Positions 16,001-58,568 of a stretch of DNA of 64,000 bases are shown here, piece by piece. This DNA comes from an uncultured Ignavibacteriales bacterium (GTDB lineage: Bacteria; Zixibacteria; MSB-5A5; GN15; FEB-12), in NCBI GenBank assembly GCA_964464605.1, contig CAYXJN010000004.1, forward strand, positions 1 to 64,000, read 5' to 3'. The notes beneath the pieces were generated by a model. It was given only the letters and a program-made list of their open reading frames with translations, searched no databases and was not told where the DNA came from. The translations under genes and the position numbers were made by a program. Each line of letters opens with the position of its first letter. Position 1 is the stretch's first letter.

Positions 16001-17006
16001 GCAGTTGACGACCGTGAGCGGACATCTGATTGATGATGACAGCGCGCTCGTAACCGGTAACGGAACACTCTATATCACTGTCTATGATTCCAAAAAACAG
16101 CGGGTGCACACAGTGCAGCAGTCACAGCAGGATGTGACCTACCAAGTTGCCGGCTCAAAACTCTATCACGGCAGCACGGACATAACGAATGGCGCCTTCA
16201 ACGTGCAGTTTATTCTTCCGTTGGATGTCACCTTCGGCGGCACAGGAGCAAAAATTTCTTTGTATGCAATTGTGAACGGACATGATGCCGGAGCCAGTAT
16301 TGACTCCCTGCCCGTTTCCGGCAGTATCGCCGCCAGCACCGATTCAACCGGTCCGGCGATTACGATTGGTTTTGTCGAAGCGCCCTCGTTCACCGATGGG
16401 GGCGTCATTCCGCCGACAGCGACCTTGCAACTACAAATCACTGATCCGTCCGGTATTAATTTAACCACCGGACAGGGGCATGAAATTATGCTTGAAGTCG
16501 ACGGTGATACGCAAAACCCGATTCCGCTCAGTTCGTCATTCAGCTATACCGCCGGTTCCTATACGGAAGGAACGCTGGTGTATGCATTAAGCCAGCTGAG
16601 TGCAGGGGAACATCGCATTAAAATTAAGGCGTGGGATAACGCCAACAATTCCGCCGTTGCCGAAGTCAGCGCGGAAGTAATCGCTCCGGGTAATTTTGCG
16701 ATTAAAGATTTACTCAACTATCCGAACCCGATGCGGGAACGAACCGAATTTTCATTCTTTTTGACTCAGCCGGCCCGGGAAGTAGCGCTTGAAATTTTCA
16801 CGCTATCCGGCCGTCGAATCAACCGGATGCTTTTCCCCGGACCGCTTGAAGCGCGCCGCTATACCAATGTTCTCACCTGGGATGGACGTGATGCATTAGC
16901 GGGAGACCGGGTTGCTACCGGGGTCTATATATATAAAGCGACGGCGTATCCGGCCAACGGCGGGGATGCGGTCGAATCATTTGGCAAAATAGTTTTGGTC
17001 AATTAA
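13089..17006 (+). CDS. porU: T9SS sortase PorU (C25 peptidase) with C-terminal sorting domain
   Basis: DPTAIRDFL, VGDGSYDY, SDDNY, catalytic YVGHG and ASC, LGDP, IKAWDNANN, CTD NYPNPM..WDGRD..GVYIYK; followed by porV. Confidence 0.9.
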   Translation: MSLSRAVVETAFFQSASYSLLLPFALAAGMSFLCFADAHAAVKEPVTVLSSTADGFSARVAIDFSKLEWAQATDSLLAGFYTIQVGIPYGATVQLLSARGVAEATFNQIPNVFPNQKLAPMELVKVGRPIVTRGRTTVGVRIYPVQNKTCYQSVEFSLRFVGGEKTYSELQPDGRFDRMYDAAVANHAEAKAWLAPVAQPTADANAVGEFSNSTIWCKAKIGTTGIYRITGAQLNGIGINVTNLRSDSVRVFSGSGLPLPVHNDSARPALEELAIQIQDGGDGFFGANDTLLFFGESVDRYTYSQTGAAHFVSNPYIDQNVYWIAIGGTYVTAPRRMSSVDGTPSGIVDTTITTFTRYAHAGQNTLLRRYYDGEIPEYYTWYWSSDRNFSFFIATPGYITGDTAQLFFYGQTFDTSGTGPQTGFMNMRVNGVSGLNKNCSIDSCYFRSNQLRDGLSTIDLTLFPIAYAPGYFDFVDIRYRSRLTPANNQLDMQFAPFTGIANVQITDNMTGTARVWDVTDGHAPVNVTNFTRSAGTLSYNYALASTAMTRMYTATSAALLAPLSLQQVQPTDLRANSSQTDLLIVTPLNLQNAVNEYVTLKEQEGASVTVATIENIMDNFGWGLYDPTAIRDFLKYSYENYPAPAPSAVLMVGDGSYDYRNYLGTGVPNYVPPYIHPLDASVSDDNYVYFGAYGILDSDTSYVVSGRGYDMMTSRWPVNSSAQVRNVINKIRTYESSTNFGEWRNTITLVADDEFGTFASESFHTIQTEELANAHTPALFNQDKIYLWDFPFVGTEKPSVNDRIVQSINNGTLLINYVGHGNPELWSDEHVFTRSSDLPRLNNAAKLPLVFAASCAIGFYDDPRRVGMAEDLLTMQDNGAVAVVSATRLVYSSPNAQFNQKVFDILLYNDSLSIGEAVYVAKLQRQYASSTPPDPVINDRAYIFLGDPLLQLGMPEYPIVIDQRPDSLQALQLTTVSGHLIDDDSALVTGNGTLYITVYDSKKQRVHTVQQSQQDVTYQVAGSKLYHGSTDITNGAFNVQFILPLDVTFGGTGAKISLYAIVNGHDAGASIDSLPVSGSIAASTDSTGPAITIGFVEAPSFTDGGVIPPTATLQLQITDPSGINLTTGQGHEIMLEVDGDTQNPIPLSSSFSYTAGSYTEGTLVYALSQLSAGEHRIKIKAWDNANNSAVAEVSAEVIAPGNFAIKDLLNYPNPMRERTEFSFFLTQPAREVALEIFTLSGRRINRMLFPGPLEARRYTNVLTWDGRDALAGDRVATGVYIYKATAYPANGGDAVESFGKIVLVN

Positions 17007-17022
17007 TACGAAGGAGAAACAG

Positions 17023-19683
17023 ATGAACCTGAAACGTGTCGGAATTCTGGTATTTGTCGCAGGGATACTGGGTATGTCTGCTGCAAACGTCCATGCGGAT
17101 GTTTCAGCCGCTGGCGTGTTGTTCTTGAAATTACCTCCCGGCGCCCGCGCTGCCGCGATGGGTGAATCCTTTACGGCGATAGCGGATGACGCTACCGCTA
17201 CCCACTGGAATCCGGCGGGTTTGGGATCATCTGCGTTTTCATCTGCCTGGGTGTCAAAACAGATTCCTGAAGAACTCCGTCCGATTAAGCAATTTACTTC
17301 GGTAAAAGCCAGAAGCGGCGGCAGCTATACGTCCTATGATATCTGGGCGATTACGGCAAAAGGTTTAGCCCGTAACGACGGAAATGACTGGGTGTTTAGT
17401 GAGCATATCACAACCCGTACCGATCAAACCTTAAGCAAGTTAGTTGCGGCATCGTTCAATATTTCCAACGAAGAAGATATCGCATCACGTTCTCGCAAAA
17501 TTGCCGAATTGAATAGCAAGCAGAGCTATGCAGAGCTGAACACTTTTTTTGACAAGCTGCTTACCGCTGTTCCGGAAACAGCCAAGCAGAGAGCGACGCT
17601 GACCGGGTATATCGATACGTTAAACGTAGCATATGATCAGTGCCTGATTAACTGGTCGAAGATGGAAGAAGCGGAAAAACAGTTCGAGTCCGGAATGTCC
17701 GATGGAACGTTGTCGGAAGTCGAGACCGACCGCGTTTTGTTTTCACTGGAACGGGGACGTAACCGCTTTTTGCCGGAGCGGCTGGAAATTCCGTTCAGTG
17801 CCGGATACGACGGTGATGCCACAGTTATCGCCAGCAGCAGTGAGTTTTTGTTCCTCGGTACGACCGAAGGGTTTTATCAGTTCCGTGAAAAACGCTGGAC
17901 CAAAGCAAAAAGCGATTCAACCTTGACCGGATCGGTGCAGTCGATTCTTCCGATGGGTGCCTTTACTCTGGTCGGCTTCTCTGACGGCTTAATGAAATAC
18001 GGCAGCGGGATGCTTCGTGATGTTGATAACGCCGATGCTTTGCCGCGTAAATCGGTTACTGCGTTAGGTGGTAGCAGTATTTCTGATATCTGGGCGGTTA
18101 TTGATAACGACCTGTATCATTGGAACGGTTCCATCTGGGCGAACTGGCAGAATTACACGGCGGTGTTGGATGATTCGCCGGATCAGCTGGCAAAGAAGTT
18201 TGCGCTGTACGGAACCGAAGCAGAAGCTGCACTTTTCAAAGAAAAATTGGTGCAAGTGAATAAGACCGTTGCAGTCACTTCGGCTACTGACTCTGCGGCC
18301 GCTCCGGCTGTTGATTCTTTAGGCGTACCAGTCGAGCCGGTCACACCGGTCGAACAGCCGTTTACCATCACTGCCGGTCAGGTAATCAAGGTGCCGTATG
18401 TCGCCGCTTTGAAGGGAAATGTGACCACGCTGTACGGCAGCGGCAATAGCGTCTGGTTAGGAAGCAACTTCGGATTGTATCATTTTACCGGTAAAAGCTG
18501 GGAAATACCGGGTTATGCAAAAACTGCAGTAGCCGCGGGCGAAACAGTGCAGACTTTAGTAGACAAGGTCAAAGCGAAAAATTCGGAAACTTCCGCCCAG
18601 TACAAAGAAGCTATTAAAACGATCAATGATATCCCCGGTGATGAACTGACGGTCGGCGATACCATTCTTACCTACAAAACCGCCGCCGCAGCGCCGGTTC
18701 GTTCGATTAACAACTATGAGGGAACTATCTACTTCGCAACGGCGGAAGGCATGCTCCAGCTTGAAGACGATGTCTGGAATCGCAGCGGTATTCAGGGACT
18801 TGGCACTGCCGATGCGCTGGGTATTGCAAAAGCGGATAATGATATCTGGCTCGGTTCAAAAGAAAAAGTAGTTGCCCGGTCGAATGCCCGCAAAGAATTA
18901 GCGGTTATGCACGTGCAATTGCTCCCCGGTTTGGGCGTCGATGATGTGTACTATGAATTTCTTTCTTTCGTAACCCCGATTGAAGGATGGGGTGGTTTGG
19001 GTGTCGATGTTTCATTCCTATCGCTTGGCAAGAGCGTCCAGACGGGTGAAGGCGGCGATGTTATCAGCGATTTTTATTCGTTTGAAACCGCCATTGCCGT
19101 TGCTTACGGAACGTCGATTACTCCGAGCTTAAAAGGTGGTATTGCCGCCAAAGTTATTTACTCCCGCCTTTCTCCGATCGGCGCCGGTAAAGAACAGGGT
19201 GACGGTACCTCTACCGGTTTCGCCGTCGATATCGGCGTGCTGCAATATATCTCCCGTCAGTTGACCTTTGGCGCAGCCTTGCGTAATCTCGGACCGGATA
19301 TTGCCTACGTTGACGCGGCGCAATCTGACCCGCTACCCCGGACCATTTCGCTTGGTCTTGCTTACAAGCTGCGTAATGAAGAAGACCTGCGAGTGTTGAT
19401 TAGCGCGCAGATCGATAAAGAACTGGTGGCATTGGATGACGGGTATTCGAAAGAGCTCTCGCAAACGTCGCCGGGATTCGGAGCTGAAGTAATGTTAATG
19501 AATCTCATCGCGTTCCGTGGCGGATACAAGTATGATGGCGAAGATCCGGATAACAGCGTCGCGACCTTCGGTGCTGGTTTGAGGTTGTTGAACAGCTTGA
19601 AGTTTGACTTTGCCTATACCCCCGGATTCACGAGCGAAGCGCAGAAAAATACGCTGCGTTCATCCGTGGGCTTGATGTTCTAA
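17023..19683 (+). CDS. porV: PorV/PorQ-family outer-membrane protein with large internal insertion
   Basis: N-terminal FLKLPPGARAAAMGE..DDATATHWNPAGL; C-terminal barrel FAVDIG..GAALRNLGP..DPLP; terminal Phe. Confidence 0.8.
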   Translation: MNLKRVGILVFVAGILGMSAANVHADVSAAGVLFLKLPPGARAAAMGESFTAIADDATATHWNPAGLGSSAFSSAWVSKQIPEELRPIKQFTSVKARSGGSYTSYDIWAITAKGLARNDGNDWVFSEHITTRTDQTLSKLVAASFNISNEEDIASRSRKIAELNSKQSYAELNTFFDKLLTAVPETAKQRATLTGYIDTLNVAYDQCLINWSKMEEAEKQFESGMSDGTLSEVETDRVLFSLERGRNRFLPERLEIPFSAGYDGDATVIASSSEFLFLGTTEGFYQFREKRWTKAKSDSTLTGSVQSILPMGAFTLVGFSDGLMKYGSGMLRDVDNADALPRKSVTALGGSSISDIWAVIDNDLYHWNGSIWANWQNYTAVLDDSPDQLAKKFALYGTEAEAALFKEKLVQVNKTVAVTSATDSAAAPAVDSLGVPVEPVTPVEQPFTITAGQVIKVPYVAALKGNVTTLYGSGNSVWLGSNFGLYHFTGKSWEIPGYAKTAVAAGETVQTLVDKVKAKNSETSAQYKEAIKTINDIPGDELTVGDTILTYKTAAAAPVRSINNYEGTIYFATAEGMLQLEDDVWNRSGIQGLGTADALGIAKADNDIWLGSKEKVVARSNARKELAVMHVQLLPGLGVDDVYYEFLSFVTPIEGWGGLGVDVSFLSLGKSVQTGEGGDVISDFYSFETAIAVAYGTSITPSLKGGIAAKVIYSRLSPIGAGKEQGDGTSTGFAVDIGVLQYISRQLTFGAALRNLGPDIAYVDAAQSDPLPRTISLGLAYKLRNEEDLRVLISAQIDKELVALDDGYSKELSQTSPGFGAEVMLMNLIAFRGGYKYDGEDPDNSVATFGAGLRLLNSLKFDFAYTPGFTSEAQKNTLRSSVGLMF

Positions 19684-19702
19684 ACAGGGAGTACAACAGG
19701 GA

Positions 19703-22700
19703 ATGACAAAAGGCCGCATCATAGGACGATTGCTGGCAACGGTACTGATCTCTGTCAGCATCGGATATCTGACGGCGTATGCAGAGGGGAAGGTGCTTTC
19801 CGGAAAGATGATGCGCGATACCAGCGTACATCACGATCACCTGGGATTTCACCCGGCAACGTCGGTTGGCAAGGGTCCGCTTAAGCACCTTACACGGAAA
19901 AACCCGTGGTCACTGCCGGATCATGCTTTGGCAGGTGGGGGCGTTCAGGATACTATTCATATTTTGGTGCTTCGCTACAATTTCCAGTACGAAGCGATCG
20001 ACAATCCGAATACGACCGGGCGCGGCCGGATGGATTTATCCAATCCGTTCGCTTCGCCGACTGATTCCGCGAACTATTACAATGCTGTCGGACATTTTAT
20101 CGATCCGCCGGCGCATGATTCACTTTATTTCGACGCGCATATGCAGGCGCTGCGCCGTTTCTACGAGTATTCCTCGCATAACCGTTTGACCTTGACCTGG
20201 GATATTTTCCCGCCGAAACGGGATTCGGTGTATACGCTTCCGCAGCAGATGGGGTATTACGGTGCGTGTGAGTTTGACTCGGTTGTCGCCGGACTTGAGC
20301 AGTTTTTTGTCGATTGTATCAGTACGGCGGATGCTCTTTCACCGGAGATTAATTTTTCACGATACGAATCGATTTTCATTTTCCATGCCGGAGCAGATCG
20401 TCAGAACGATATCGGCTTTCCGCCGACCTGTGAAGATTTGTTTACCGGGTTTATCCGCTTCGGTGATTCGGTATTGGTTGATAATGATTCGACCTCGGTG
20501 CGGGATGCTCTGCTCATGCCAGAGACAGCGAGTCAGGATAACCGCGCTACCGCGCTGAATGCCGTTATCGCCCATGAGTTCGGGCATCAGCTTGGGTTGG
20601 TTGATTTGTATAGCACGATTAATTTTGCGACGACCATCGGCGATTTTGCGACGATGGATCATAACGGATTCAAAACCGGCATTGATTTCGGCTGGTCGGT
20701 CGGTTCGGCCTTTGGTTGTTTCCCGGTTTATCATGATGCCTGGTCGCGCGCATTTTTAGGGTTTGATTCGGTCTATGATTTCAGGCAGGGGACGGATATT
20801 CGCATCGTAGCCGCCAACATGGTCAAAGACGGCATCAAAATCGCCCGCGTTCCGATTACCGAGAATGAATATTACTTAATTGAAAATCGTATCGAAGATA
20901 CCGACGGTAAAGCGACCGCGGTGCTGGCCGATTCGGCAACTTCGGTTATTCAGGGGCCTGTATTTGCAGCGACCCGCGAATTTACGGGTGAGTATGATGC
21001 CTTATTACCCGGTTCAGGAATGTTGATCTATCGCATCGATGAAACAGTTGCGGGAATGGATTACGATCAGGACGGCTTAAACAACTTTCTTGATAATGAT
21101 CTACAGTGGGACTATCAGCGGAAATTCATGACGCTTATGGAAGCGGATGGTTACGAAAATCTTACCGGTCGCTGCACGGCAGGGTGCGGCCTGGTCGGGC
21201 AGTCGTATGGCTGGCTGGGAGATATGTACCCGGAAGGAAACAACACTTCGCTGACACCGAACAGCAATCCACCGTCAGTCGATGGCACCGGTAACAATAC
21301 GCATATACGTATTACGAATATCCATCGTGACAGCAGCATTACTCCAGATACGGTTTTCGGTGCAGTAATGAAATTCTCCGTTGAAACGGATGGCCTTGTT
21401 TCCGGGTTTCCGGTTCGTATCGGCTACCCGAAATTTTTGAATGAAGGAAGACTCGCGCCGATAATTGACGACCTTAATGGAGATAACACGCCGGAAATTA
21501 TTGTAGCTGCAAGTCGTCGTGTGCTTGCGTTTACACCGAATGGGGGGAGTTTTCTGCAGTCGGTTGATTCCTGTCCGGCCTGTCCGGTGTTTGTCGATAC
21601 CGCGATAACTTCATTTTCTTCGACATTGTATCCGGTTCCGATACTCTATCAGGCTCCGGCTGATATTTCCGCCGGTCCGGTTACCGGAAATTTTGGTACT
21701 GGCGCCACCCGTTATGTTGCTTTTTCTTATTTTTCAGGCGGATTCGGCCGTGTTGTTTTGGTTGCACCGCAGGATGTGGGTGATGACGGTCAGGCCGATG
21801 TCGCCGCTCCGCCGGTTGCTACGGCCGGTGCACCGACGCATTTGGTGTTTGGTAACAAACTCTGGGTTGTTGCGGATAGTGTGTACGTCAAATCATCGTT
21901 GGCTGGAGCGGCAACGCGAATTGTATCGATTAGTGATTCGGTAACAACCGGTGCCTGCCTGGCTGATTCGTTTCTTATCGTTGCGGCGGGTAATGCTGCC
22001 GGAACGAACCTGTATTTACTCAATTCAACGAATGCAACCGATACGCTGCACTTGACCGGTTTCTACTCACTCGGTCCGGTGGCGGCGGATATCGATGGTG
22101 ACGGTGTAACTGAAATTATTCTCTTTTCACCAAATGGAAACGCAGCGATCGTGAATGTCAATTCCGGTATACAATCGTTGCAAGTGCAGCTAACCGATGA
22201 CTTGAACACTGACTTTACCACGTCACCGATTATTGCGGATGTCGATCTCGATGGACGCCCTGATATCGTTATCGGCGGCGTCAATGCGATCTATGCCTTT
22301 AATGACAACCTGATTTTGAAAACCGAGTATCCGATAGAAGTTGATGACCGTTTCCTCGATGAGGAAGTCGATGCGGCGCCGATTGCCGCCAATATCTCCG
22401 GCGATAAGCAGCCGGAAGTAATTGCACCGAATGCGATCGGCAATTTCTATTCATTCGGTCCGAAACTGTCGACCGGTTTTCCGTTATCAGCGGGAGAGCG
22501 TTCAATTAGTTCTGCTGTTGTCTTCAACACGTCAACCGGCGGTAAACTTGGCTATAGCGGTTTAGACGGCTGGTTCTATTTGTGGGAAACCGGAACAGAC
22601 AGCACGACCAATTTCTGGCCGATGGCGGGGCATGATGCCTCAGGTAGTTTTGCATTTTTATCTTCGCAGCTCAGCCCGGAAGCGAGTTATTCCGGTCTCT

Positions 22701-22978
22701 TGCCTGAAGACCGGGTTTACAATTACCCGAATCCGGTAACGAGCGGCGTTACCACGATCCGGTATTTGTTGGGTCAGACGGCGACAAAAGTAGAATTGAA
22801 ATTATATGATTTATCCGGAATCGAAATTGCCACGCTGTCCGGCACGACCATGGCCGGAGATAATGAAACAGTGTGGAATTGTTCCGGAGTAACACCCGGT
22901 GTGTACCGCTGCATGATTTATGCTGATTTTAGCGGCAGCAGCGAACACGCCTTTACTGATATCGCGGTGATACGATGA
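19703..22978 (+). CDS. M6 (immune inhibitor A-like) metalloprotease with FG-GAP repeats and T9SS CTD
   Basis: IFHAG, HEFGHQLGLVDLY, EYYLIENR, DLNGD/DIDGDG/DVDLDG repeats, C-terminal YNYPNP..GVYRC. Confidence 0.85.
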   Translation: MTKGRIIGRLLATVLISVSIGYLTAYAEGKVLSGKMMRDTSVHHDHLGFHPATSVGKGPLKHLTRKNPWSLPDHALAGGGVQDTIHILVLRYNFQYEAIDNPNTTGRGRMDLSNPFASPTDSANYYNAVGHFIDPPAHDSLYFDAHMQALRRFYEYSSHNRLTLTWDIFPPKRDSVYTLPQQMGYYGACEFDSVVAGLEQFFVDCISTADALSPEINFSRYESIFIFHAGADRQNDIGFPPTCEDLFTGFIRFGDSVLVDNDSTSVRDALLMPETASQDNRATALNAVIAHEFGHQLGLVDLYSTINFATTIGDFATMDHNGFKTGIDFGWSVGSAFGCFPVYHDAWSRAFLGFDSVYDFRQGTDIRIVAANMVKDGIKIARVPITENEYYLIENRIEDTDGKATAVLADSATSVIQGPVFAATREFTGEYDALLPGSGMLIYRIDETVAGMDYDQDGLNNFLDNDLQWDYQRKFMTLMEADGYENLTGRCTAGCGLVGQSYGWLGDMYPEGNNTSLTPNSNPPSVDGTGNNTHIRITNIHRDSSITPDTVFGAVMKFSVETDGLVSGFPVRIGYPKFLNEGRLAPIIDDLNGDNTPEIIVAASRRVLAFTPNGGSFLQSVDSCPACPVFVDTAITSFSSTLYPVPILYQAPADISAGPVTGNFGTGATRYVAFSYFSGGFGRVVLVAPQDVGDDGQADVAAPPVATAGAPTHLVFGNKLWVVADSVYVKSSLAGAATRIVSISDSVTTGACLADSFLIVAAGNAAGTNLYLLNSTNATDTLHLTGFYSLGPVAADIDGDGVTEIILFSPNGNAAIVNVNSGIQSLQVQLTDDLNTDFTTSPIIADVDLDGRPDIVIGGVNAIYAFNDNLILKTEYPIEVDDRFLDEEVDAAPIAANISGDKQPEVIAPNAIGNFYSFGPKLSTGFPLSAGERSISSAVVFNTSTGGKLGYSGLDGWFYLWETGTDSTTNFWPMAGHDASGSFAFLSSQLSPEASYSGLLPEDRVYNYPNPVTSGVTTIRYLLGQTATKVELKLYDLSGIEIATLSGTTMAGDNETVWNCSGVTPGVYRCMIYADFSGSSEHAFTDIAVIR

Positions 22979-23001
22979 CTTTGACAGATAGGAGAATTTT
23001 T

Positions 23002-23919
23002 ATGCGACGCATGATGAGTTCGGTTTTAGTCGTGTGTGCGTGCCTCTTCGGTGCTGCCGCCTCATTTGCGAATACAGTAGCCCCTTCCGTATTTGAACGG
23101 GATATACTGGCGTCTCAATATAGCCTGACGACAGCGAAGGTTTTAGCTGATCTGGACGATCAGACGGGTGGTGGGGATGAGATGGAGTCTTCCTCGAATC
23201 CTCCCGGCTATAAATCTCCCGGAAAAGCATTTGTGTATTCATTGATTATCCCTGGAGCCGGTCAATTGTATTACGGCAGCAAAATCAAAGCCGCTGCGTT
23301 TTTGGGCGCGGAAGCAGCTTCCTGGTTTTTCTATGCGAAGTTTCACAGTGACGGGGAAGAGCTGACCGATGAGTTCGAAGCATTTCAACAGGCTCACTGG
23401 AGCGAAGATGCTTATAGTGACTATCTTGAATGGGTGTACGGGCACCGTGACGATGACTCAATCGATGCCGTGGAAATAAGCCATAATTTGCCGAGCACCA
23501 GAACACAGCAGTATTATGAGATGACCGGCAAATATGACCAATTTTCATGGGGGTGGGATGATGCCCGTTTAGATGGCCGCGGATTGGAAGGAGTAGACAC
23601 AACCTCCGGTAATCCGTATACACCGGTTGATCCACCTGATACTGCCAAAGGAAATCGGGTACCGAGTTCCGCGAATCGTCTTACCTATGAAACGATGCGT
23701 CACGACGCCAACAAGAAATTCGACAATGCGACCAAAATGATTATCGTGGCGAGTGTCAACCATCTCGTCAGCGCTGTTGAGGCGTTGATTTCGACCAAGC
23801 TGCGGAATAACAAACTTGCCAAAGGTCCGACACTTGGGCAGATAAAAGTGAAAGCGACTCTAAAGTCGTATTATTCCCGACGTGATACACCGTATGTAAC
23901 CTTCACGTATAAGTTCTGA
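23002..23919 (+). CDS. Exported membrane protein (DUF5683/TM2-like motif), paralog 1
   Basis: Signal peptide; KSPGKAFVYSLIIPGAGQLYYG; C-terminal YKF. Confidence 0.7.
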   Translation: MRRMMSSVLVVCACLFGAAASFANTVAPSVFERDILASQYSLTTAKVLADLDDQTGGGDEMESSSNPPGYKSPGKAFVYSLIIPGAGQLYYGSKIKAAAFLGAEAASWFFYAKFHSDGEELTDEFEAFQQAHWSEDAYSDYLEWVYGHRDDDSIDAVEISHNLPSTRTQQYYEMTGKYDQFSWGWDDARLDGRGLEGVDTTSGNPYTPVDPPDTAKGNRVPSSANRLTYETMRHDANKKFDNATKMIIVASVNHLVSAVEALISTKLRNNKLAKGPTLGQIKVKATLKSYYSRRDTPYVTFTYKF

Positions 23920-24737
23920 TGAAACAACAGCTGTTTGTCCGCACTCTTATCGCGTTTTTGGTTATCGCCGCACAGAGCTTCGGCGCGTCGTTTTATTCAT
24001 CCCAAACACCGATTCAAACGGCAGTGGCGGCATCATCGTATTCGTTGGGTTACGCAATTGCTGACGATGAATTTGAATCGATGAACAAACCGCGCGAAGC
24101 AAAAGATACCGCCGCAACGAAACAATCGGATGACCAGCGTAAATCACTCGGTAAAGCGATTTTGTATTCTGCTTTGGTTCCGGGGGGCGGGGAATGGTAT
24201 GTCGGCCATAAGACCAAAGCGAAGCTGTTCATGGCGGCCGAGGCCGGTATCTGGATCGGGTTTTCTGCTTTTCTTATTCAAAAAAACTGGAAGCGGGATG
24301 AACTGGTTTTGTACGGCAACGAACACGCGAATGCCCAGCTCGAAGGGCGCGATGATGAGTTCCTTGATTTAGTCGGTTTTTATGACAGTATCGACGAATA
24401 CAATACACTCGGTCGCGCGACTGATCCGGAGCGGCCGTATTTAGCTGATACGCCGGAGAATCACTGGCGTTGGGACTCAGACGGTTCAATTGAAGCATTC
24501 AAGTACATCAAAAACGACTATCGTGAAGCAAAACGGCGCAGCCAGTTTATGCTCGGTCTGGCGGTAGTGAATAGAGTGATTTCGATTGTCGACGCTATTC
24601 GTGATGTCCGCCGGCATAATTCACGGATCGGTGAGGATAACTCGGAATTTTCAAAAACTGATACTTACAAACTGCAATTTTCTATTCACCCGGAATCTGA
24701 CACACAGGTACGGCTGACCTTATTGACACCGTTTTAA
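23919..24737 (+). CDS. Exported membrane protein (DUF5683/TM2-like motif), paralog 2
   Basis: TGATG coupling; KSLGKAILYSALVPGGGEWYVG; C-terminal Phe. Confidence 0.7.
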   Translation: MKQQLFVRTLIAFLVIAAQSFGASFYSSQTPIQTAVAASSYSLGYAIADDEFESMNKPREAKDTAATKQSDDQRKSLGKAILYSALVPGGGEWYVGHKTKAKLFMAAEAGIWIGFSAFLIQKNWKRDELVLYGNEHANAQLEGRDDEFLDLVGFYDSIDEYNTLGRATDPERPYLADTPENHWRWDSDGSIEAFKYIKNDYREAKRRSQFMLGLAVVNRVISIVDAIRDVRRHNSRIGEDNSEFSKTDTYKLQFSIHPESDTQVRLTLLTPF

Positions 24738-24745
24738 TCATCATC

Positions 24746-25738
24746 ATGAACATGACTCGCCATATTCTCGCATTCGTTGTTATGAGCGGTTTTTTGTGCG
24801 CCTGTAACCCGGGGGAACAGGAAATCGCGTCGGAGCAGTCGAGTACAACCCTCGCGCCGCCGCTGACTGTTGTCATGGAAAAAGAGCTCAAAGGGAATGT
24901 GCTGGGTGCAGTTTTATCGGAGCCGTTTGGCGTTGCCGTTTCGCGGGATAAACACATCTATCTTTCCGACGCCCGAAACAACCGCATTCTGCTGTTCGAT
25001 TCACTCTTGAATCCACTCCAGCAGCGGGGCGGATACGGCGGCGGTGCAGGGCAGATGAATCATCCGCAGTATATTACGCTTGATAATGATTTGAATCTTC
25101 TGGTAGCCGAGCAGGGAAATCGCCGCGTTTCATTTTTTAATTCGCGACTCGACTATGTTTCCGAAATCGCGATGAAAGATCAGGATGAACCGCTACGTTT
25201 CGGCGCACCCAAAGGGGTTGCTGTAAGGCGCGGTGGAGAAGTGTGGGTGTCGGAGCCGTATAATAACCGTCTTGATGTATTTTCAGCAGCCGGGATATTC
25301 GACCGCTTTATGGCGGATTACAGTGCCGGGATGGAAGGGGTAATTTCTCCTGCGAAATTAGTTACCGTTCCCGGGGGGAGAATGATTACGTGCGATGCCG
25401 GCAATCGGCGGGTCGTGTTTCTCGATGAATTCGGCGTTAACCGAAAACAGATTCGGTATAGCGGATTCGAACGTCCGGTCGCAGCGACGGCAGGTGACAA
25501 TGTTATCTGGGTGCTTGATGAACGCAAAGCGATGGTCTATCTGTTTTCGATGGAAGGGACGTATATCGCATCATATGGCCCCTCATTTGGCGGAAGTGGG
25601 ATCGGGTTAAAAAATCCGTCCGATATTGCGCTTTTGTCCCGCGATCAACTGCTGATTGTCGATAACGGGAACGACCGCGTTTTGCTCTGCCGGATTTTCT
25701 GGTCACAGGATGAGTCCAGCAATGCTGTTCCGCACTAA
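24746..25738 (+). CDS. NHL-repeat beta-propeller lipoprotein
   Basis: LCAC lipobox; repeated P.GVAV..YLSDARNNRI / LIVDNGNDRV units. Confidence 0.85.
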   Translation: MNMTRHILAFVVMSGFLCACNPGEQEIASEQSSTTLAPPLTVVMEKELKGNVLGAVLSEPFGVAVSRDKHIYLSDARNNRILLFDSLLNPLQQRGGYGGGAGQMNHPQYITLDNDLNLLVAEQGNRRVSFFNSRLDYVSEIAMKDQDEPLRFGAPKGVAVRRGGEVWVSEPYNNRLDVFSAAGIFDRFMADYSAGMEGVISPAKLVTVPGGRMITCDAGNRRVVFLDEFGVNRKQIRYSGFERPVAATAGDNVIWVLDERKAMVYLFSMEGTYIASYGPSFGGSGIGLKNPSDIALLSRDQLLIVDNGNDRVLLCRIFWSQDESSNAVPH

Positions 25739-28700
25739 TCGCCGATGGCTTCAACTCGTATTCTTTTTTAGTTTAATCCTCATCAGTGTTTCTCCGTCTG
25801 TGTTTGCATCTGTAACCAAAACAGAATTTATCGGCGAGCAGATTCCAAAACGGATATCGTATGGCGCTCGTCCGATTTTCGGTTTTTCCGATTCGCTTTT
25901 TATAAATGGCAGATTGCTTGAACGGGGGAAAGAATATCTTGTCGACGATGCCAACCGTCAGTTCGTTTTACAGATTACCCCAAATCAGAATGACACGTTT
26001 TCGGTTCGATATACCCCCTTTCCGGCCTGGGTAGTTGCTTCATATAATTCGGTAATACCATCGGTTGAACCCCGCTATGATGTCGCGGTGCAGCCGGCGG
26101 CATCGTTTTCCCGAGTCGCTGTTCCATCTCCGTCTGCACATTCGCAGTTAAACATTTCAGGGAGCAAATCATTTCGTGTTGCCTCACGCACGGAGGGAAA
26201 CCGGCAGTTCGGGCAGTCGATTGATTTGCAGGTGAATGGATTCTTGACGCCGTCGATTCGACTCGATGGTGCAATCAGTGATCGCGGGTATGACCCGGCC
26301 TATGGCACCAGCACCAGTCGTCTGCGTGAGCTTGAAAATGTCCGTTTGAAACTGACTGCGCCAGTGTTGACCGCGCAGGTTGGGGATATCGATTTTCTTT
26401 CCGGGTTCGATTCGGGGAAACGTCAGGAATCACGGCTGTACGGATTTTCCGCAACGGCAGGGCAAGCTAATTGGAACGTAACCGGAACGGCCGCGCGCGC
26501 CAGAGGACGGTTTACCTCGAAAAGTCTGCTTGGTATCGACAATGTGCAGGGGCCGTACCAGATTACCGAAAGTAATGCGATCGCGATTGTTCCCGGTTCC
26601 GAAACGGTCTGGCTCAACGGCGCAAAATTAGAGCGAAGCGCCGATCAGGGCTATACGATTGAATACCCGACCGGAAGGATAACTTTTTCAAGTCGTTATC
26701 CGATTGATCGGAGATCCCGCATCGAAGTCGATTATGAAATCGCCGAGACGGCGTATCGCCCGTCGTTATTCTCAGGCGGTGCGAAAGTCGCCGGGAATGA
26801 TTCGATTGTTTTTGCGCAGGTTGAATGGCTGCAGGAAAAGGACGGGGAAACCAGTTTGTCGGGCGAACTTTCGCAGTCTGACAAACAGATTCTTAGCGAT
26901 GCCGGTGATAATACTGTATTAGCCGTTCGTTCCGGTGTTCGGGCCGACAGCTTAGGCGCCTATGTGCTTGATTCGACCGCGTTACCTGATTCGATATTCA
27001 CCTATGTAGGAAAAGGGAACGGTGATTATTCACTTACTTTTCGCTATGCCGGTTCGCAGAATGGTAGTTACCGGTTTGAAGGAGGAGACCGCTATAGGTA
27101 TGTCGGCGTAGGTCGTGGTGAATATTTGCCGCAGATACAATTGAGCGCGCCGGAGCAGCAATCGTATTATCGGGCAAAAGTCGGAACTCAGTATCCGGGA
27201 GTTGGAAAGTTCAGTGCAGAAGTTCGCCAGAGTGTGTATGACCAAAATCTATTTTCATCGCATGATGACGCTGATAATAGCGGCTTATTGTATCAATTCG
27301 GATTTGACGGCAAATGGGGGAAAGAATCTAAACAAAACCGGATTCATCTGTTAGCGCGTACGAAGGAATCGGAATTTGTCGAGCGTTCACGTGTCGATGC
27401 CGCAGATTTCCATCGTCAGTTTCTTTTGCCGCTTTCATTTATGTCATTAGCTGATGAACGGTATTACTCAGCCACCGGGGCGTTTCACGCAGCTAATTTT
27501 TTACAGGTGTCACCCGAATTTGCGTATTTGACCTACAGCCAACAAACCAAAGCGACCCGCACCGGCGGCACTCTCTTAGTTACACCACACACAAAACTTG
27601 ATGTGCAGGGTGGGTTGGTGGCGATGGAGCTAACGACCGATAACCCGGTTCATCCGCACGGTTCCGGCAAAACCGCGCAGGCGGCAATTCGGTACCGCAT
27701 GACGGACAACATCAGCGTTACGCCATCATGGAATTATGATGACCGTAGAATTCGATACAATGATACTACCGATGCCTTAACCAGTTCGCAACTCGCTTTC
27801 GAGATTCAAGGCAAACATGAAACGCTCCGACTTGAACAGCTTCGTGAAGACACGCTTGAAACAGCCGCTTTACCGACTCGAATCAGAAACCGACTGATGC
27901 TCACGTCGCGTCGCCGTATCGGCAACTTGACTTACACGTCAACTATTACCGGACAGATGCGAACGGAAAATGATGTAACCGAGCGGAATCTGCTTTCAGA
28001 TTTGGATATGTCGTATGCGAGCGCCGCGCATCGTCTTTCGGTTACAACTGCGTATTCCCTTTCGCATGAAACCCGCAACGCGCGCGGGATTACATACTTG
28101 GAAGTTCCGACCGGACAGGGGACACATAGATTAGAAAACGGACAATACATTCCCGATCCGGATGGCAATTATATACAGGTGGAAGAGATTCTTTCGGATC
28201 ATTCGGCGGTCAGTCGCGGTCGTAAGTCATTCCAACTGCAAAAAGCATGGTCGATGGTCAATATCCGTTTTGTTTCGCATATCGAAGAGGAACTGCTTTC
28301 AAAAGGAGAACGGACTGCTTTGTGGGCGGTGCCGTTTTTGTCGGATGAAAACGAACCGTATCTGTTTTATGATCGCCGCTACGAAGCCCGCACCGGGTTT
28401 ATTCCGCTTTCCGGTGTCGATGCTATCCTGCTGCAATATGCCGATTCCCGTCAGTCACGATTACTCGGCAATGAGCAGAAACTTCGCACCGACCGCACCG
28501 CGCGGGTAACACTCACTCAACCGGTGAAAGCATTTTTCTGCGAAGAGCAATTCGAATGGTTTGCGATTGATCGGGATGCCTATTACAGCGGCGGTGGGTC
28601 ATTCGACGGATTCATGGTATCGACGCGATTACGGGGGATGATCGACCGGAATGAATATACCAGCGGTGTGCGGGTACGTTCGGCACGGACAACAGATGAT

Positions 28701-28991
28701 ATCAAGGCGGTTACCTTTGCGAGCGAATCGACTGTGCGAGTCCGGCTGTTCGATCAATGTGAATGGAGCAACAGTCTCGAAGTGTATCTCAACAAGTATT
28801 CAACTGATATAGTCACTGTTTCTTATCTACTTACGGATGACCGCCCCGGCAAGCGGGGTTCGATCTGGTCGTCGGGATTCAAGTACCGCGTTCGGAATGA
28901 AGTGCGAATAGATGCCGGTATTTCCGGGCGTCATGCCGATGACCGCTCGGCGCGATTACTGTTCAAAGGAGAAGTGCTTGTTACGTTCTAA
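25722..28991 (+). CDS. Large outer-membrane beta-barrel protein with SprA-like N-terminal motifs
   Basis: Signal peptide; 1089 aa; IVPGSETVWLNG..YTIEYPTGRITF motif shared with SprA in this window; terminal Phe. Confidence 0.75.
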   Translation: MLFRTNRRWLQLVFFFSLILISVSPSVFASVTKTEFIGEQIPKRISYGARPIFGFSDSLFINGRLLERGKEYLVDDANRQFVLQITPNQNDTFSVRYTPFPAWVVASYNSVIPSVEPRYDVAVQPAASFSRVAVPSPSAHSQLNISGSKSFRVASRTEGNRQFGQSIDLQVNGFLTPSIRLDGAISDRGYDPAYGTSTSRLRELENVRLKLTAPVLTAQVGDIDFLSGFDSGKRQESRLYGFSATAGQANWNVTGTAARARGRFTSKSLLGIDNVQGPYQITESNAIAIVPGSETVWLNGAKLERSADQGYTIEYPTGRITFSSRYPIDRRSRIEVDYEIAETAYRPSLFSGGAKVAGNDSIVFAQVEWLQEKDGETSLSGELSQSDKQILSDAGDNTVLAVRSGVRADSLGAYVLDSTALPDSIFTYVGKGNGDYSLTFRYAGSQNGSYRFEGGDRYRYVGVGRGEYLPQIQLSAPEQQSYYRAKVGTQYPGVGKFSAEVRQSVYDQNLFSSHDDADNSGLLYQFGFDGKWGKESKQNRIHLLARTKESEFVERSRVDAADFHRQFLLPLSFMSLADERYYSATGAFHAANFLQVSPEFAYLTYSQQTKATRTGGTLLVTPHTKLDVQGGLVAMELTTDNPVHPHGSGKTAQAAIRYRMTDNISVTPSWNYDDRRIRYNDTTDALTSSQLAFEIQGKHETLRLEQLREDTLETAALPTRIRNRLMLTSRRRIGNLTYTSTITGQMRTENDVTERNLLSDLDMSYASAAHRLSVTTAYSLSHETRNARGITYLEVPTGQGTHRLENGQYIPDPDGNYIQVEEILSDHSAVSRGRKSFQLQKAWSMVNIRFVSHIEEELLSKGERTALWAVPFLSDENEPYLFYDRRYEARTGFIPLSGVDAILLQYADSRQSRLLGNEQKLRTDRTARVTLTQPVKAFFCEEQFEWFAIDRDAYYSGGGSFDGFMVSTRLRGMIDRNEYTSGVRVRSARTTDDIKAVTFASESTVRVRLFDQCEWSNSLEVYLNKYSTDIVTVSYLLTDDRPGKRGSIWSSGFKYRVRNEVRIDAGISGRHADDRSARLLFKGEVLVTF

Positions 28992-30612
28992 GGGCATGGT
29001 ATGCCTTTCATTCATACTTCTCTGTTCGATAAGCACGGCAATGACAGCATCGGTGCAAGTTGCCGATGAGTTCAAGTCGATGCGCTCTGAATTGCAGCGG
29101 ATTGTCGACAAAACAGTATCGTCTGATGAACAGCAGGCAAATATCATCGAATATTTGAGTCAGCAGGGATATTTACAGCCGTCGATAGTTGCTGATGCCG
29201 GTGGATTACGCATAGAGCCGGGAAAGCAATTTGTTCTCGATACGCTCATATTGAATCAGGATATCATTGCCGTCGAAACAATAAACCGATGTTTCTCCGT
29301 CCGGTTGCTCGATAGCCTTGCTTCTGTCCATGTCGATTCCCTTAATAATCTCGGTTGCTTGTATGCGAGTTTTACGGTTCAGGAGATGCGACTGCATGAT
29401 TCGATCGTTACGATTGAAGCCGGTATTATCAAAGGACCTTCCGTTCGCTGGGCAGATACCCGATTGGAAGGACTCAAGCGCACTGATCCGGAACTAATCG
29501 AACGATACCTGTCGATTTCAACGGATAGTACGATTTCGGAAGATGTCATTATCTCTGTTGAACAGGAAGCCTCGCAGATTCCGTTCGTTACTTTCGTGCC
29601 CCCGGCGCAAATCAAACCGCGTGACGGATACGAACAGGTGGATTTAGCGTTGTCGTTTATTGAAAAACGAAGTGTGTTGCTGAATGGCGGTTTGGGATAC
29701 GGCGGCAATTCACAGGATGAACTGATCTGGTCGTTGGGAGCCACGGTTGATAATCTGTTCGGGGATGGAAAATCAGCATCGGTCAAATCGGAACGACGTG
29801 AACAGAAACGGGAAATTTTAGAAATCAGCTACCGTCAGCCGCTTTTCCTTTTGCACGTCGATGATTTGCAAATTCGGGCGGCAACGCGTGATTTTCCGGA
29901 GAGCTTTGCAGAATTTCTGTTGAGCGGACAGTATTCGACTCGGTTCAAGCGGAGAATGACAGGGTCAACTTCGCTTACTTATCGCACCGTAAAACCGGCA
30001 GCTACAAATCCGTATCAAACCCTTGGTATCGACTTCGGTGCAGTCTGGTCACACACTAATTCCCGTTTATTGCCAACGCGGGGATATCGCCTCAATACAT
30101 CAGTTGCCGGAGTATGGCGTACGTATCAGCAGGGTGCAGATAGTTCAGCGATGAATGGCCGTTCATTCACCGATGTACGTTTGCATACCTCATTTGAATA
30201 TTATCAACCTGTTATTGCATCGCTTGGTGTAGCATCAGCGATTCGCTATTTCGGGTTGGAATCATCTGAAAACCTACCGCCAATTTCTGAACTCTTTTTA
30301 ATCGGTGGTCCGGGTACGTTGCGCGGCTGGAATCAGGATCAGTTTTCAGCAATTCGCTCCGCGACATTTTCATTCGAACCACGTTTGCATTTCTCCGGCG
30401 GGTATCTGCATCTGTTCTATGATGGCGGCTGGCTGCAAAACCGGGAAATGCGAAATGGAAAAACGGCGATGCGTGAAACCTATCATGACGGTTTTGGTTT
30501 TGGACTGTTTTTGCTGAACGGTCAAAAAGGACTTTCGCTTAGTTTAGGCTGGAACAAAACGCTGCGATGTAATGACCCGCTTGTCGGATTGTCACTCAGC
30601 ACGGACTTATAA
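28978..30612 (+). CDS. Omp85 (BamA/TamA) family outer-membrane protein
   Basis: POTRA-like LEGLKRTDPELIERYL; NLFGDGK; IGGPGTLRGW loop-6 motif; TTG start with AGGAG. Confidence 0.8.
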   Translation: MLRSKGMVCLSFILLCSISTAMTASVQVADEFKSMRSELQRIVDKTVSSDEQQANIIEYLSQQGYLQPSIVADAGGLRIEPGKQFVLDTLILNQDIIAVETINRCFSVRLLDSLASVHVDSLNNLGCLYASFTVQEMRLHDSIVTIEAGIIKGPSVRWADTRLEGLKRTDPELIERYLSISTDSTISEDVIISVEQEASQIPFVTFVPPAQIKPRDGYEQVDLALSFIEKRSVLLNGGLGYGGNSQDELIWSLGATVDNLFGDGKSASVKSERREQKREILEISYRQPLFLLHVDDLQIRAATRDFPESFAEFLLSGQYSTRFKRRMTGSTSLTYRTVKPAATNPYQTLGIDFGAVWSHTNSRLLPTRGYRLNTSVAGVWRTYQQGADSSAMNGRSFTDVRLHTSFEYYQPVIASLGVASAIRYFGLESSENLPPISELFLIGGPGTLRGWNQDQFSAIRSATFSFEPRLHFSGGYLHLFYDGGWLQNREMRNGKTAMRETYHDGFGFGLFLLNGQKGLSLSLGWNKTLRCNDPLVGLSLSTDL

Positions 30613-31497: not shown

Positions 31498-31562
31498 GCG
31501 AAACGGAAACAATCCGGACAGATAGCAGTATAAAAAACCGTTGTCCATACACTGATGGAGAA

Positions 31563-32447: not shown

Positions 32448-32465
32448 TGATATCTGGAGAAACTC

Positions 32466-33455: not shown

Positions 33456-33464
33456 TCGACAACT

Positions 33465-34340: not shown

Positions 34341-34342
34341 CG

Positions 34343-36393: not shown

Positions 36394-36402
36394 GGAAATA
36401 GT

Positions 36403-38203: not shown

Positions 38204-38205
38204 GC

Positions 38206-58557: not shown

Positions 58558-58568
58558 TCTATTCGGCC

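Follow-up and report, generated by a model that had tools for sequence, protein, structure and literature searches.

The question raised by this locus is whether the window (the whole stretch of 64,000 nucleotides that was analysed) encodes, besides SprA, a second and smaller SprA-related pore with an Omp85 protein of its own, as the original prediction proposed. That reading was supported for the SprA relation, a very large predicted barrel and the Omp85 partner, and was not supported for the smaller size. The following genes are involved.

13089..24737, + strand: conserved upstream context, outside the module: porU, the porV-family gene (886 aa), a gene for an M6-like protein that carries a T9SS sorting domain, and two DUF5683 genes
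13089-17006, + strand: porU (family match)
17023-19683, + strand: porV-family gene, 886 aa (family match)
24746..25738, + strand: NHL-repeat beta-propeller lipoprotein gene (330 aa, P0123), whose last 17 bases overlap the barrel gene
25722..28991, + strand: predicted giant outer-membrane beta-barrel gene (1089 aa, P0001), with a signal peptide (residues 1-29) and a C-terminal Phe
28996..30612, + strand: TamA-like Omp85 gene, 538 aa from the Met at 28996 (longest open reading frame from 28912), PF01103
51041-57169: SprA of the window, 2042 aa (TIGR04189, 573 bits)

The open reading frame at 25722-28991 exists as claimed, encodes 1089 aa and carries both the signal peptide and the C-terminal Phe. 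Overlaps with both neighbouring genes had also been proposed. Provided that translation begins at the ATG at 25722, the one with the NHL gene is genuine and amounts to 17 bases. The one with the Omp85 gene, of 80 bases, is probably an artefact of open reading frame calling, because alignments of the Omp85 orthologues begin at the Met at 28996, which comes four bases past the barrel stop codon. Promoter and terminator scans gave counts no different from those of shuffled sequences.

The barrel protein, so called after its predicted fold, matched no Pfam family at E<=0.01 and no NCBIfam family; the best NCBIfam model, TIGR04189, scored 19.3 bits, below its 200-bit cut-off. As no Pfam or NCBIfam model covers the family, its members carry the label 'hypothetical protein' in hundreds of genomes. 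Relatives comprised 2205 cluster representatives at E<=1e-3, and within one phylum 253 of 285 genomes gave a full or partial match. The search for related loci used a narrower barrel alignment, and relatives outside the phylum may have been missed. Taxon labels of the relatives (Chloroflexota, Bacteroidota) conflict with their record titles (Ignavibacteriales, Calditrichota, others), and the family range given here is based on neither. Members of the family were found only in an uncultured phylum.

The relationship with SprA was examined by several comparisons. When the genome was searched with the barrel protein, the matches were itself and SprA only. BLASTP yielded a sole significant local match, between barrel residues 211-341 and SprA 580-675 (42/132 identities, 28% gaps, E 6e-7 for this single comparison), and TIGR04189 aligned with residues 283-340 and with that stretch only (model positions 598-653, E 1.3e-4). 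In the first profile-profile comparison by hhalign, 40 barrel family members were set against 28 Zixibacteria SprA sequences. Residues 286-357 aligned with SprA 622-693 (probability 93.4%, E 2.5e-7), and residues 36-103 with SprA 609-678 (probability 88.5%, E 2.7e-6). With a more diverse family profile of 36 sequences, the former improved to E 3.9e-9, while the N-terminal copy (32-103 against SprA 606-679) reached E 2.5e-9 at a probability of 96%. The shared SprA-type beta domain of ~70 aa is thus present in two copies, and the second copy that had been suspected near the N-terminus was recovered at residues 36-103, with E values from 2.7e-6 to 2.5e-9. Residues 136-270 aligned colinearly with SprA 157-303 over 124 columns (E 4.5e-4, probability 33%), and the three N-terminal motif pairs among those on which the SprA similarity had been proposed (QSIDLQVNG.. 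and QRYRFDITG.., AQVGDIDF and IEAGNTTL, LYGFSA and LFGLKA) fall within this alignment.

The best E value of the reversed-SprA controls was 0.19, against which the HMM-HMM alignment is significant; the SprA relationship is therefore specific though distant. As judged from these profiles, the homology is local: significant similarity spans only about 240 of the 1089 barrel residues, the rest of the barrel giving E 0.08 or worse. The family profile, searched against PDB sequences with HMMER, found nothing significant and did not reach F. johnsoniae SprA. Within the homologous region, SprA alone carries an insertion of roughly 320 aa (residues 304-605). Pfam SprA_N (PF14349), matched by the SprA of the window at 75 bits, is absent from the barrel protein. 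Most likely, the barrel protein is an ancient, stripped-down SprA relative that has kept the first strands and the small domain but not the cap and the inserts, which account for roughly 1,000 aa in SprA. Its parts, and the corresponding region of SprA, are arranged as follows.

Residues 32-103 (25815..26030, + strand): N-terminal small beta domain before the barrel, first SprA-type copy (hhalign against SprA 606-679)
Residues 136-270 (26127..26531, + strand): first predicted barrel strands, colinear with SprA 157-303
Residues 286-376 (26577..26849, + strand): inserted SprA-type beta domain (second copy) and the two strands after it (BLASTP, TIGR04189, hhalign)
Residues 379-478 (26856..27155, + strand): second inserted domain between barrel strands (DSSP on the model)
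Residues 479-1089 (27156..28988, + strand): rest of the predicted barrel, about 28 long strands (DSSP, pLDDT mostly 85-97)
Residues 795-816 (28104-28169, + strand): conserved hairpin in the barrel, with V795, G798, G800 and G815 invariant or nearly so
SprA residues 157-711 (51509..53173, + strand): SprA region homologous to the N-terminal part of the barrel protein (hhalign)

The AF2 model of the barrel protein had a pLDDT of 82.4 and a pTM of 0.68. Both the strand count and the closure were taken from a DSSP string of this model, which gave ~39 long beta-segments between residues 142 and 1088 with the two inserted domains excluded. Since 39 is an odd number, at least one segment must be miscounted, and the protein is predicted to be a single-chain giant barrel of about 38 strands. 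The first strands by DSSP are 142-156, 162-176, 179-186, 207-212, 216-226, 236-247, 251-260 and 263-270. Structural matching aligned 16-18-strand porins over model residues 147..1089, which would fit a barrel closed by pairing of the first strand with the last. Foldseek returned generic barrels only (TMq <=0.27), including BtuB matches at TMq 0.17, and a match to the BtuB-BtuG entry 8blw was a generic barrel match with an rmsd of 21. Among solved chains, SprA gave the longest structural alignment (692 residues) and was the sole one to span the model end to end. The C-terminal residue F1089 is kept in at least 90% of the sequences. The N-terminal small domain consists of six short strands (pLDDT about 81-86). 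The second inserted domain had no significant Pfam match and is strongly conserved, G412, G448 and Y450 being invariant in the diverse alignment. By our reading of the DSSP string, a strand count that starts at the C-terminal end places the long loops and the two inserted domains on the same face.

SprA of F. johnsoniae is a single-chain transmembrane barrel of 36 strands (PMC10994853; 10.64898/2026.03.07.710327), described as the largest known single-chain beta-barrel (10.64898/2026.03.07.710327), and its cap places more than 150 kDa outside the membrane (PMC12611786). The ~39 long segments in our model come near this strand number, and the idea of a half-size barrel or smaller pore was not supported: what is missing is the ~1,000 aa of SprA inserts and cap. 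In the model, loops and inserts outside the strands total a few hundred residues, and a large SprA-type extracellular cap is not found in a protein of 1089 aa overall.

The product of the downstream gene matched PF01103 at 50.2 bits (cut-off 24). Its AF2 model (pLDDT 87.5) contained three POTRA-like beta-alpha-alpha-beta-beta units and 16 strands, and matched TamA (4c00) at TMq 0.70 / TMt 0.69 and BamA at E of about 1e-24. It is therefore predicted to be an Omp85 protein of the BamA/TamA class with a TamA-like architecture. With the model of BamA proper (TIGR03303) it scored 59.9 bits against a cut-off of 297, and its three POTRA-like units compare with five in BamA; Omp85 paralogues of BamA size (824 and 831 aa) are encoded elsewhere in the genome. 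The only TamB match in the genome is on contig C9, adjoining a different Omp85 gene, and no TamB was found at the barrel locus. The orthologue alignment has the consensus 'TLRGY' at the place where the loop-6 motif is expected.

The claim that the barrel has its own Omp85 partner was strengthened by comparing 80 loci. An Omp85 gene lies directly downstream of the barrel gene in 68 of the 80, and in 68 of the 69 with enough downstream DNA. The other 12 comprise 11 that end at a contig edge and one (L021) with its Omp85 on another contig of the same genome. This last locus, where the barrel stands without its usual neighbours, was considered as a counter-example and is explained by rearrangement. 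At the deep-branch loci, NHL upstream and Omp85 downstream flank the barrel in 12/12. A seeming 1589-aa barrel-Omp85 fusion in one genome (G160) was dismissed, as the two genes are separated by a scaffold gap of 100 N.

Joint loss pointed in the same direction. In all five near-complete barrel-less genomes examined, the orthologue of the barrel's Omp85 was absent too, and the locus was otherwise unbroken from the DUF5683 genes or NHL through to ubiA. Family f4 (33 genomes) contained 24 genomes with both genes, 9 with neither and 0 discordant. Outside families f1, f2 and f4 the single-sequence Omp85 search (E 1e-25) lacks sensitivity, and its use was confined to these three. One genome scored as Omp85-less by that search (G042) has a diverged Omp85 adjoining its barrel (profile E 1e-54); among G042, G110, G118 and G111, the profile re-check covered G042. 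The barrel and Omp85 genes are hence linked and lost jointly, and most likely form a two-gene unit in which the Omp85 protein is the obligate genetic partner of the barrel. Because complete genomes without the module exist, it is dispensable. Together, these results establish as real an undescribed family of SprA-related, predicted giant barrels with a dedicated Omp85, and the gain and loss of an uncharacterised barrel protein together with its own TamA-like Omp85 point to an undescribed outer-membrane module.

The NHL lipoprotein (PF01436, 62.8 bits against a cut-off of 20) has a lipobox Cys20 that is invariant in 34/34 aligned orthologues. In 76 of the 80 loci its gene is found upstream of the barrel gene, and almost all informative loci have the NHL, barrel and Omp85 genes side by side. 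However, the NHL gene is intact in two of the five barrel-less genomes, so it could not be upheld as an obligate member of the module, and this retention argues against a plug that serves this barrel only. A putative NHL pseudogene in one genome (G096, '1 TGA') was discarded, since the NHL profile is covered over its full length by a frame free of stops, and the TGA, which comes at the end of the match, most likely just terminates the gene. Complex prediction for Omp85 with NHL gave a score of 0.01 and a mark of 0.32, which counts neither for nor against binding.

The barrel does lie, as proposed, in one gene run with porU and the porV-family gene. This run with porU, porV and the sorting-domain gene was found in 40-52 of the 80 loci, the misses being mostly short contigs. 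Gene order is kept over 20 kb across the whole phylum, as far as an unrelated Bat/MoxR operon, and adjacency to porU and porV therefore carries little weight. Moreover, the porU, porV, M6-like and DUF5683 genes are in place and intact in 5/5 genomes without barrel and Omp85, and SprA is still matched in all five. Thus the T9SS can do without the module and does not disappear together with it, and the proposed functional tie to porU and porV was not supported. Any link of the module to the T9SS is at most putative. SprA has a lateral opening that PorV or a Plug protein closes, and it transports proteins with a T9SS sorting domain; that porV persists where the barrel has been lost is a genetic hint against such a dependence for the barrel.

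We propose that the module consists of an undescribed giant SprA-relative barrel and a dedicated Omp85, a whole account that we give about even chances of being right. The barrel would be exported by Sec and folded into the outer membrane by its private Omp85, which may stay bound; a barrel of such size would be a hard client, which is our proposed reason why a private Omp85 is needed. It would then form a gated passage for bulky cargo, which would most likely be folded proteins, in parallel to the canonical T9SS and not as a part of it. The NHL propeller lipoprotein, which usually accompanies the pair, may be an accessory that acts as plug or lid. We infer the insertase role of Omp85, the conduit and translocon function of the barrel and the plug role of NHL from the comparisons above. 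A more far-reaching version, which we hold to be rather improbable, makes the module a minimal SprA-type translocon and a separate secretion route: a ~38-strand barrel, at least as large as the largest known single-chain barrel, made from 1,089 residues, with a private Omp85 that both assembles it and works alongside it in the place of PorV, and with a propeller plug.

Alternatively, the barrel could be a second SprA-type translocon within the T9SS that serves PorU and PorV, its Omp85 being not an assembly factor but a working partner at the pore, as PorV is on SprA. The homology to SprA and the recurrent gene run with porU, the porV-family and the sorting-domain genes are consistent with this, and the Omp85 lateral gate known from BamA could in principle face a lateral opening. 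Such a translocon is nonetheless unlikely, as the PorU/PorV part of the locus and SprA outlast the module, the conserved order makes adjacency a weak argument, and the Omp85 belongs to the BamA/TamA insertase class. It is likewise doubtful that the SprA relation reflects just a shared mobile small domain, on a barrel that has a separate origin (for example in a smaller porin whose strands were duplicated), is convergent and perhaps structural or porin-like, and simply uses Omp85 as its insertase. The first eight strands are colinear with the first of SprA at E 4.5e-4 (reversed controls >=0.19), the small domain follows those strands in both proteins, no third protein in the genome carries it, and no solved chain other than SprA covers the model end to end.

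An uptake channel for large substrates was also weighed, in which NHL would act at the surface as a lid or as a binding protein, much as in SusC-SusD or BtuB-BtuG, and Omp85 would build the barrel-lipoprotein complex. The propeller lipoprotein gene that adjoins the barrel gene in 76/80 loci, the loops and inserted domains read as lying on one face, and the presence of 8blw among the structural matches, though generic, would suit such a channel. Yet Pfam detects no TonB-dependent plug or 22-strand receptor family on the barrel, no element for energy coupling is evident, the barrel's link with NHL is not a strict one, and its only specific homology is to an export pore. We regard this uptake function as quite improbable.

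If the preferred model of a SprA relative with a dedicated Omp85 is right, a comparable strand number to SprA is reached in half the polypeptide, by a gene that travels with its own Omp85. The barrel would then be a natural minimal SprA barrel for asking which parts are core, the pair would offer one client and one insertase for studies of giant-barrel assembly, and the module would give a view of T9SS translocon evolution outside Bacteroidota. In the literature, we found no paper on a protein that is SprA-like, a SprA paralogue or a half-size SprA, none on an Omp85 partner of SprA, none on a T9SS or type IX secretion in Zixibacteria, and no description of a TamA/BamA-class Omp85 that tracks one particular barrel gene.

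Among known systems, LptD-LptE also combines a large barrel, an N-terminal beta domain, a lipoprotein partner and Omp85 involvement: LptD is a 26-strand barrel with an N-terminal periplasmic beta domain and a lipoprotein within the barrel, and its assembly depends on Omp85. However, neither an LptD family nor an OstA-type N-terminal domain matched the barrel protein, LptD_2 was found elsewhere in the genome (205.6 bits), PF04453 and PF03968 had no match in the genome, and NHL is a propeller and not LptE-like. The absence of the module from near-complete genomes contradicts an LptD reading as well, because an essential LPS inserter would not be absent. BtuB-BtuG and SusC-SusD share the pairing of a barrel gene with a lipoprotein gene, and BtuG has a beta-propeller fold. 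They differ in that the barrel protein has no TonB-dependent plug or receptor signature, is predicted to be far larger, and has Omp85 and not the lipoprotein as its strictly coupled partner.

In two-partner secretion, the Omp85 carries a plug helix at its N-terminus and two POTRA domains, and its partner has a TPS domain and forms a secreted beta-helix. A TpsB assignment was rejected, as the Omp85 here has three POTRA-like units with no helix ahead of them apart from the signal peptide; a TpsA assignment was rejected too, as its partner is a predicted membrane barrel with no TPS/haemagglutination family match. The likeness to TamA and BamA lies in the 16-strand Omp85 barrel, the three POTRA-like units and the TamA-like size. 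In contrast to TamA-TamB, no TamB lies beside this Omp85, and its presence follows one particular barrel gene; TamL of Bacteroidota, unlike it, is described as a lipoprotein (PMC12045153).

The closest comparison is with SprA/Sov, the T9SS translocon (TIGR04189; solved as 6H3I, 6H3J and 8GL6). Both are very large single-chain outer-membrane barrels, by prediction in our case, with homologous first strands and a small beta domain inserted after them, and their genes share one genome and lie together within the 64-kb window. The barrel protein is half as long (1089 against 2042 aa) and has neither the roughly 320-aa insertion (304-605) nor the PF14349 region nor the large mass that SprA places outside the cell. 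At the N-terminus, a second copy of the small domain stands where SprA carries an extension that binds SkpA (PMC10994853). Finally, the barrel protein is tied to an Omp85 and not to PorV, and it is dispensable in some lineages that retain SprA.

The 1089-aa protein belongs to a family that is locally homologous to SprA, and its gene is linked to, and lost jointly with, that of an Omp85 protein. In the source genome (2.8 Mb, 18 contigs), both genes lie on contig C4 in a single plus-strand run, in the order porU, PorV-family, M6-like, two DUF5683, NHL, barrel, Omp85, UbiA and Bat/MoxR. The features concerned are as follows.

13089-17006, +, porU (NF033707, 711 bits)
17023-19683, +, PorV-family protein, 886 aa
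19703-22978, +, M6-like protein with a T9SS sorting domain
22975-24737, +, two DUF5683 genes
24746-25738, +, NHL-repeat lipoprotein
25722-28991, +, 1089-aa predicted barrel protein
longest ORF from 28912, +, Omp85 protein (start most likely the Met at 28996)
51041-57169, +, SprA, 2042 aa (TIGR04189, 573 bits), 22 kb downstream

The PorV profile matches the 886-aa protein at residues ~30-67 and 620-885 only, hence about 550 residues are inserted in this PorV-family barrel protein, whose orthologues across the phylum measure 882-932 aa. The M6-like protein combines a metalloprotease fold, FG-GAP repeats and the sorting domain, scores 268 bits on the 'inactivated M6-like' model NF052323 (cut-off 600) and is always flanked by the porV and DUF5683 genes. 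The DUF5683 tandem consists of diverged paralogues (314 and 272 aa); the two stay together in 63-64 of 80 loci, and they are retained where the barrel module is lost. Directly after the module, in a conserved position, stands a UbiA-family prenyltransferase (30649-31497, +), whose best NCBIfam matches are archaeal-type geranylgeranylglycerol-phosphate geranylgeranyltransferase models (173-180 bits, under their cut-offs). Next comes a full Bat/MoxR-type operon (31401-40786, +; BatD-like, MoxR AAA_3, DUF58, BatA/VWA and TPR BatC-like), and throughout the phylum it keeps a colinear arrangement with the T9SS genes upstream. Directly 3' of SprA lie selA and selB of the selenocysteine machinery (57187-60458, +). 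Within the C-terminal third of SprA itself (residues ~1690-1710; 56100-56160) is a low-complexity stretch rich in lysine and glutamate, EKEKDEKKDEKKDEKK, and the small domain of SprA (residues 600-680; 52838-53080) gives weak phage-tail-family matches, none at cut-off (NF052337 tail_tube_6XGR, 18 bits; DUF2460, E 0.019); one barrel homologue is labelled 'DUF2460 domain-containing' by its source. DNA near-identical to 24746-30612 occurs in metagenome runs of seven coded studies; one study has no label, and the labels of the others are bioreactor, activated sludge, sludge, aquaculture, rhizosphere and wastewater. None of the runs listed is of RNA.

The barrel protein begins with a signal peptide, and its last residue is Phe. 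No Pfam family matched it at E<=0.01, and the sole NCBIfam match, at 19 bits, was to one stretch of the SprA model. BLASTP against the SprA of the window gave one significant local match (residues 211-341 vs 580-675; 32% identity, 28% gaps, E 6e-7), the remaining segments each being insignificant when taken singly. Two alignments of the family (A1, 40 members; A2, 36 more diverse members) were compared by hhalign with an alignment of 28 Zixibacteria SprA proteins. With A1, residues 286-357 matched SprA 622-693 (probability 93.4%, E 2.5e-7) and residues 36-103 matched SprA 609-678 (88.5%, E 2.7e-6); with A2, the E values were 3.9e-9 and 2.5e-9, respectively. The latter match bears out the degenerate second copy that the original prediction had placed near the N-terminus. 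A third, colinear match appeared with A2 (136-270 vs SprA 157-303; 124 columns, E 4.5e-4, probability 33%), and the three N-terminal motif pairs noticed earlier all fall within this one alignment. Reversed-SprA controls reached at best E 0.23 with A1 and 0.19 with A2, and the rest of the barrel gave E 0.08-0.5 against SprA, two of these weak matches being C-terminal and colinear. In the whole genome, the barrel protein matched only itself and SprA; against PDB sequences, the family profile did not reach F. johnsoniae SprA. The predicted resemblance to SprA, judged from these alignments, is thus real and specific, though limited to about 240 residues, namely the first eight barrel strands, the small beta domain and the strands that follow this domain; in SprA, about 320 extra residues separate the first strands from it.

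AlphaFold2 on A1 gave a model with mean pLDDT 82.4 and pTM 0.68. In it, a small domain of six strands (residues 32-97), followed by a disordered linker, precedes long strands from 142 to 1088, a series broken by two inserted domains (271-344, SprA-type, and 379-478) and by a conserved hairpin (795-816). Outside these, 39 long segments were counted in the DSSP string. Such outer-membrane barrels have both ends in the periplasm, so the true strand number must be even, most simply 38; we infer both this approximate count and the closure of the barrel. When the strands are numbered back from the C-terminus, tight turns of 2-5 residues fall on one face of the model and all long loops and both inserts on the other. 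Tight turns on one face and long loops on the other are the usual pattern of outer-membrane barrels, which would place the inserts outside the cell. One report describes the 36-strand barrel of SprA as the largest known (10.64898/2026.03.07.710327). The model is compatible with a barrel of SprA-like circumference, without proving one. Hence the 'half-size' of the original prediction holds for protein length, but probably not for the barrel.

Linkage was counted by tblastn with the window proteins over 80 loci from species genomes. Omp85 lies directly downstream of the barrel gene in 68 loci and NHL directly upstream in 76, compared with 63-64 for the DUF5683 genes, 58 for ubiA, 45 for porV and 40 for porU. 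Of the 12 Omp85-less loci, 11 break off at the barrel gene or no more than ~420 bases away from it; in the twelfth, L021, the neighbours are wholly different, and that genome carries the Omp85 on another contig. Profile searches of another 12 loci, of which 11 belong to the deep families f13 and f14, showed both genes in place in all 12, NHL upstream and Omp85 downstream of the barrel. Gene order alone is weak evidence here, given that colinearity extends over the entire 20-kb region throughout the phylum. We therefore turn to losses. Five barrel-less genomes (G188, G096, G097, G162 and G237; 96-100% complete, four genera, three families) all retain a porV-family gene, and none has an orthologue of the module Omp85, giving just weak matches to BamA-size frames of 827-871 aa. 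Their loci read porU-porV-M6-DUF5683-DUF5683, followed by NHL-ubiA (G096, G097) or directly by ubiA (G188, G237), with <160 bases at the site of the two or three missing genes; the G162 locus was read up to the second DUF5683 gene. Of the five genomes, three have lost NHL as well as the pair, and the other two, of one genus, keep it intact. In family f4 (n=33), 24 genomes have both genes, nine have neither and none is discordant, two phylum-wide searches agreeing exactly. In family f1, both genes are absent from six genomes, and six others seem discordant: the single-sequence query gave a false negative for G042, in G079 and G080 no more than 81 bases separate the Omp85 from where the contig begins, and G110, G118 and G111 remain. 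Thus barrel and Omp85 form a unit that has been lost repeatedly while the surrounding T9SS genes stay, and the early proposal that this Omp85 is the barrel's own partner is upheld.

The Omp85 orthologues are not lipoproteins. The AlphaFold2 model (pLDDT 87.5) has a barrel of 16 strands preceded by three POTRA-like units, with BamA (E ~1e-24) and TamA (4c00; TMq 0.70, TMt 0.69) as best structural matches; this predicted architecture points to the insertase class rather than the two-partner-secretion class. The genome encodes five Omp85 proteins, and since its sole TamB adjoins another of them, the module Omp85 is an additional paralogue. On contig C9 (82504-85490, -), a 668-aa Omp85 and a TamB-family frame of 1192 aa lie side by side and presumably make up the TAM pair of this genome; further paralogues of 831 and 601 aa are on C3 and C6. 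An LptD_2 protein is found elsewhere in the genome. In the NHL lipoprotein, the lipobox cysteine is invariant.

A scan of 1.84 billion cluster representatives returned 2205 matches to the barrel family at E<=1e-3, of which 1990 also reach E<=1e-10; among 150 listed representatives, all are 1000-1230 aa or fragments. In the phylum, the profile matched 279 of 285 genomes at 1e-5 and found no match whatever in six. For 26 of the 279, the best match was merely ~1e-9 to 1e-19, a level that corresponds to the SprA domain in the source genome; leaving these out, 253 of 285 have a full or partial member. The most divergent subfamilies (1150-1230 aa, ~20% identity) come from f13 and f14, and the weak means of search used outside the phylum found no members there.

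We propose that the barrel protein may be an ancient, stripped-down relative of the SprA barrel, which a private TamA-like Omp85 would fold into the outer membrane and might stay bound to. The barrel could then provide bulky cargo with a gated route alongside the canonical T9SS and outside it, and the propeller lipoprotein would be an accessory that serves as plug or lid. Taken whole, this proposal has in our estimate about an even chance of being right; the insertase role, cargo and gating are what we infer. The translocon integrated into the T9SS that was originally suggested is unlikely, since the porU and porV genes are indifferent to loss of the module. That the barrel evolved independently and merely shares a domain with SprA is quite unlikely, given that the first strands match colinearly as well, and an uptake channel with the lipoprotein as its lid seems slightly less probable still.

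Our literature search, thin on subscription journals, found nothing on T9SS in Zixibacteria, on a short SprA-like protein or on SprA with an Omp85 partner. What appears to be new here is an uncharacterised family of predicted giant barrels with a dedicated, predicted TamA-like Omp85. Specialists in outer-membrane biogenesis would find this surprising, and the module may offer a compact system for the study of giant barrels, in a host phylum that is uncultured. Compared with SprA/Sov proteins, the barrel protein scores 19 bits against a membership cut-off of 200 bits and lacks the PF14349 region and the large cap; it is therefore not classed as SprA, but is akin to the SprA-type barrel by descent and would probably work like one.
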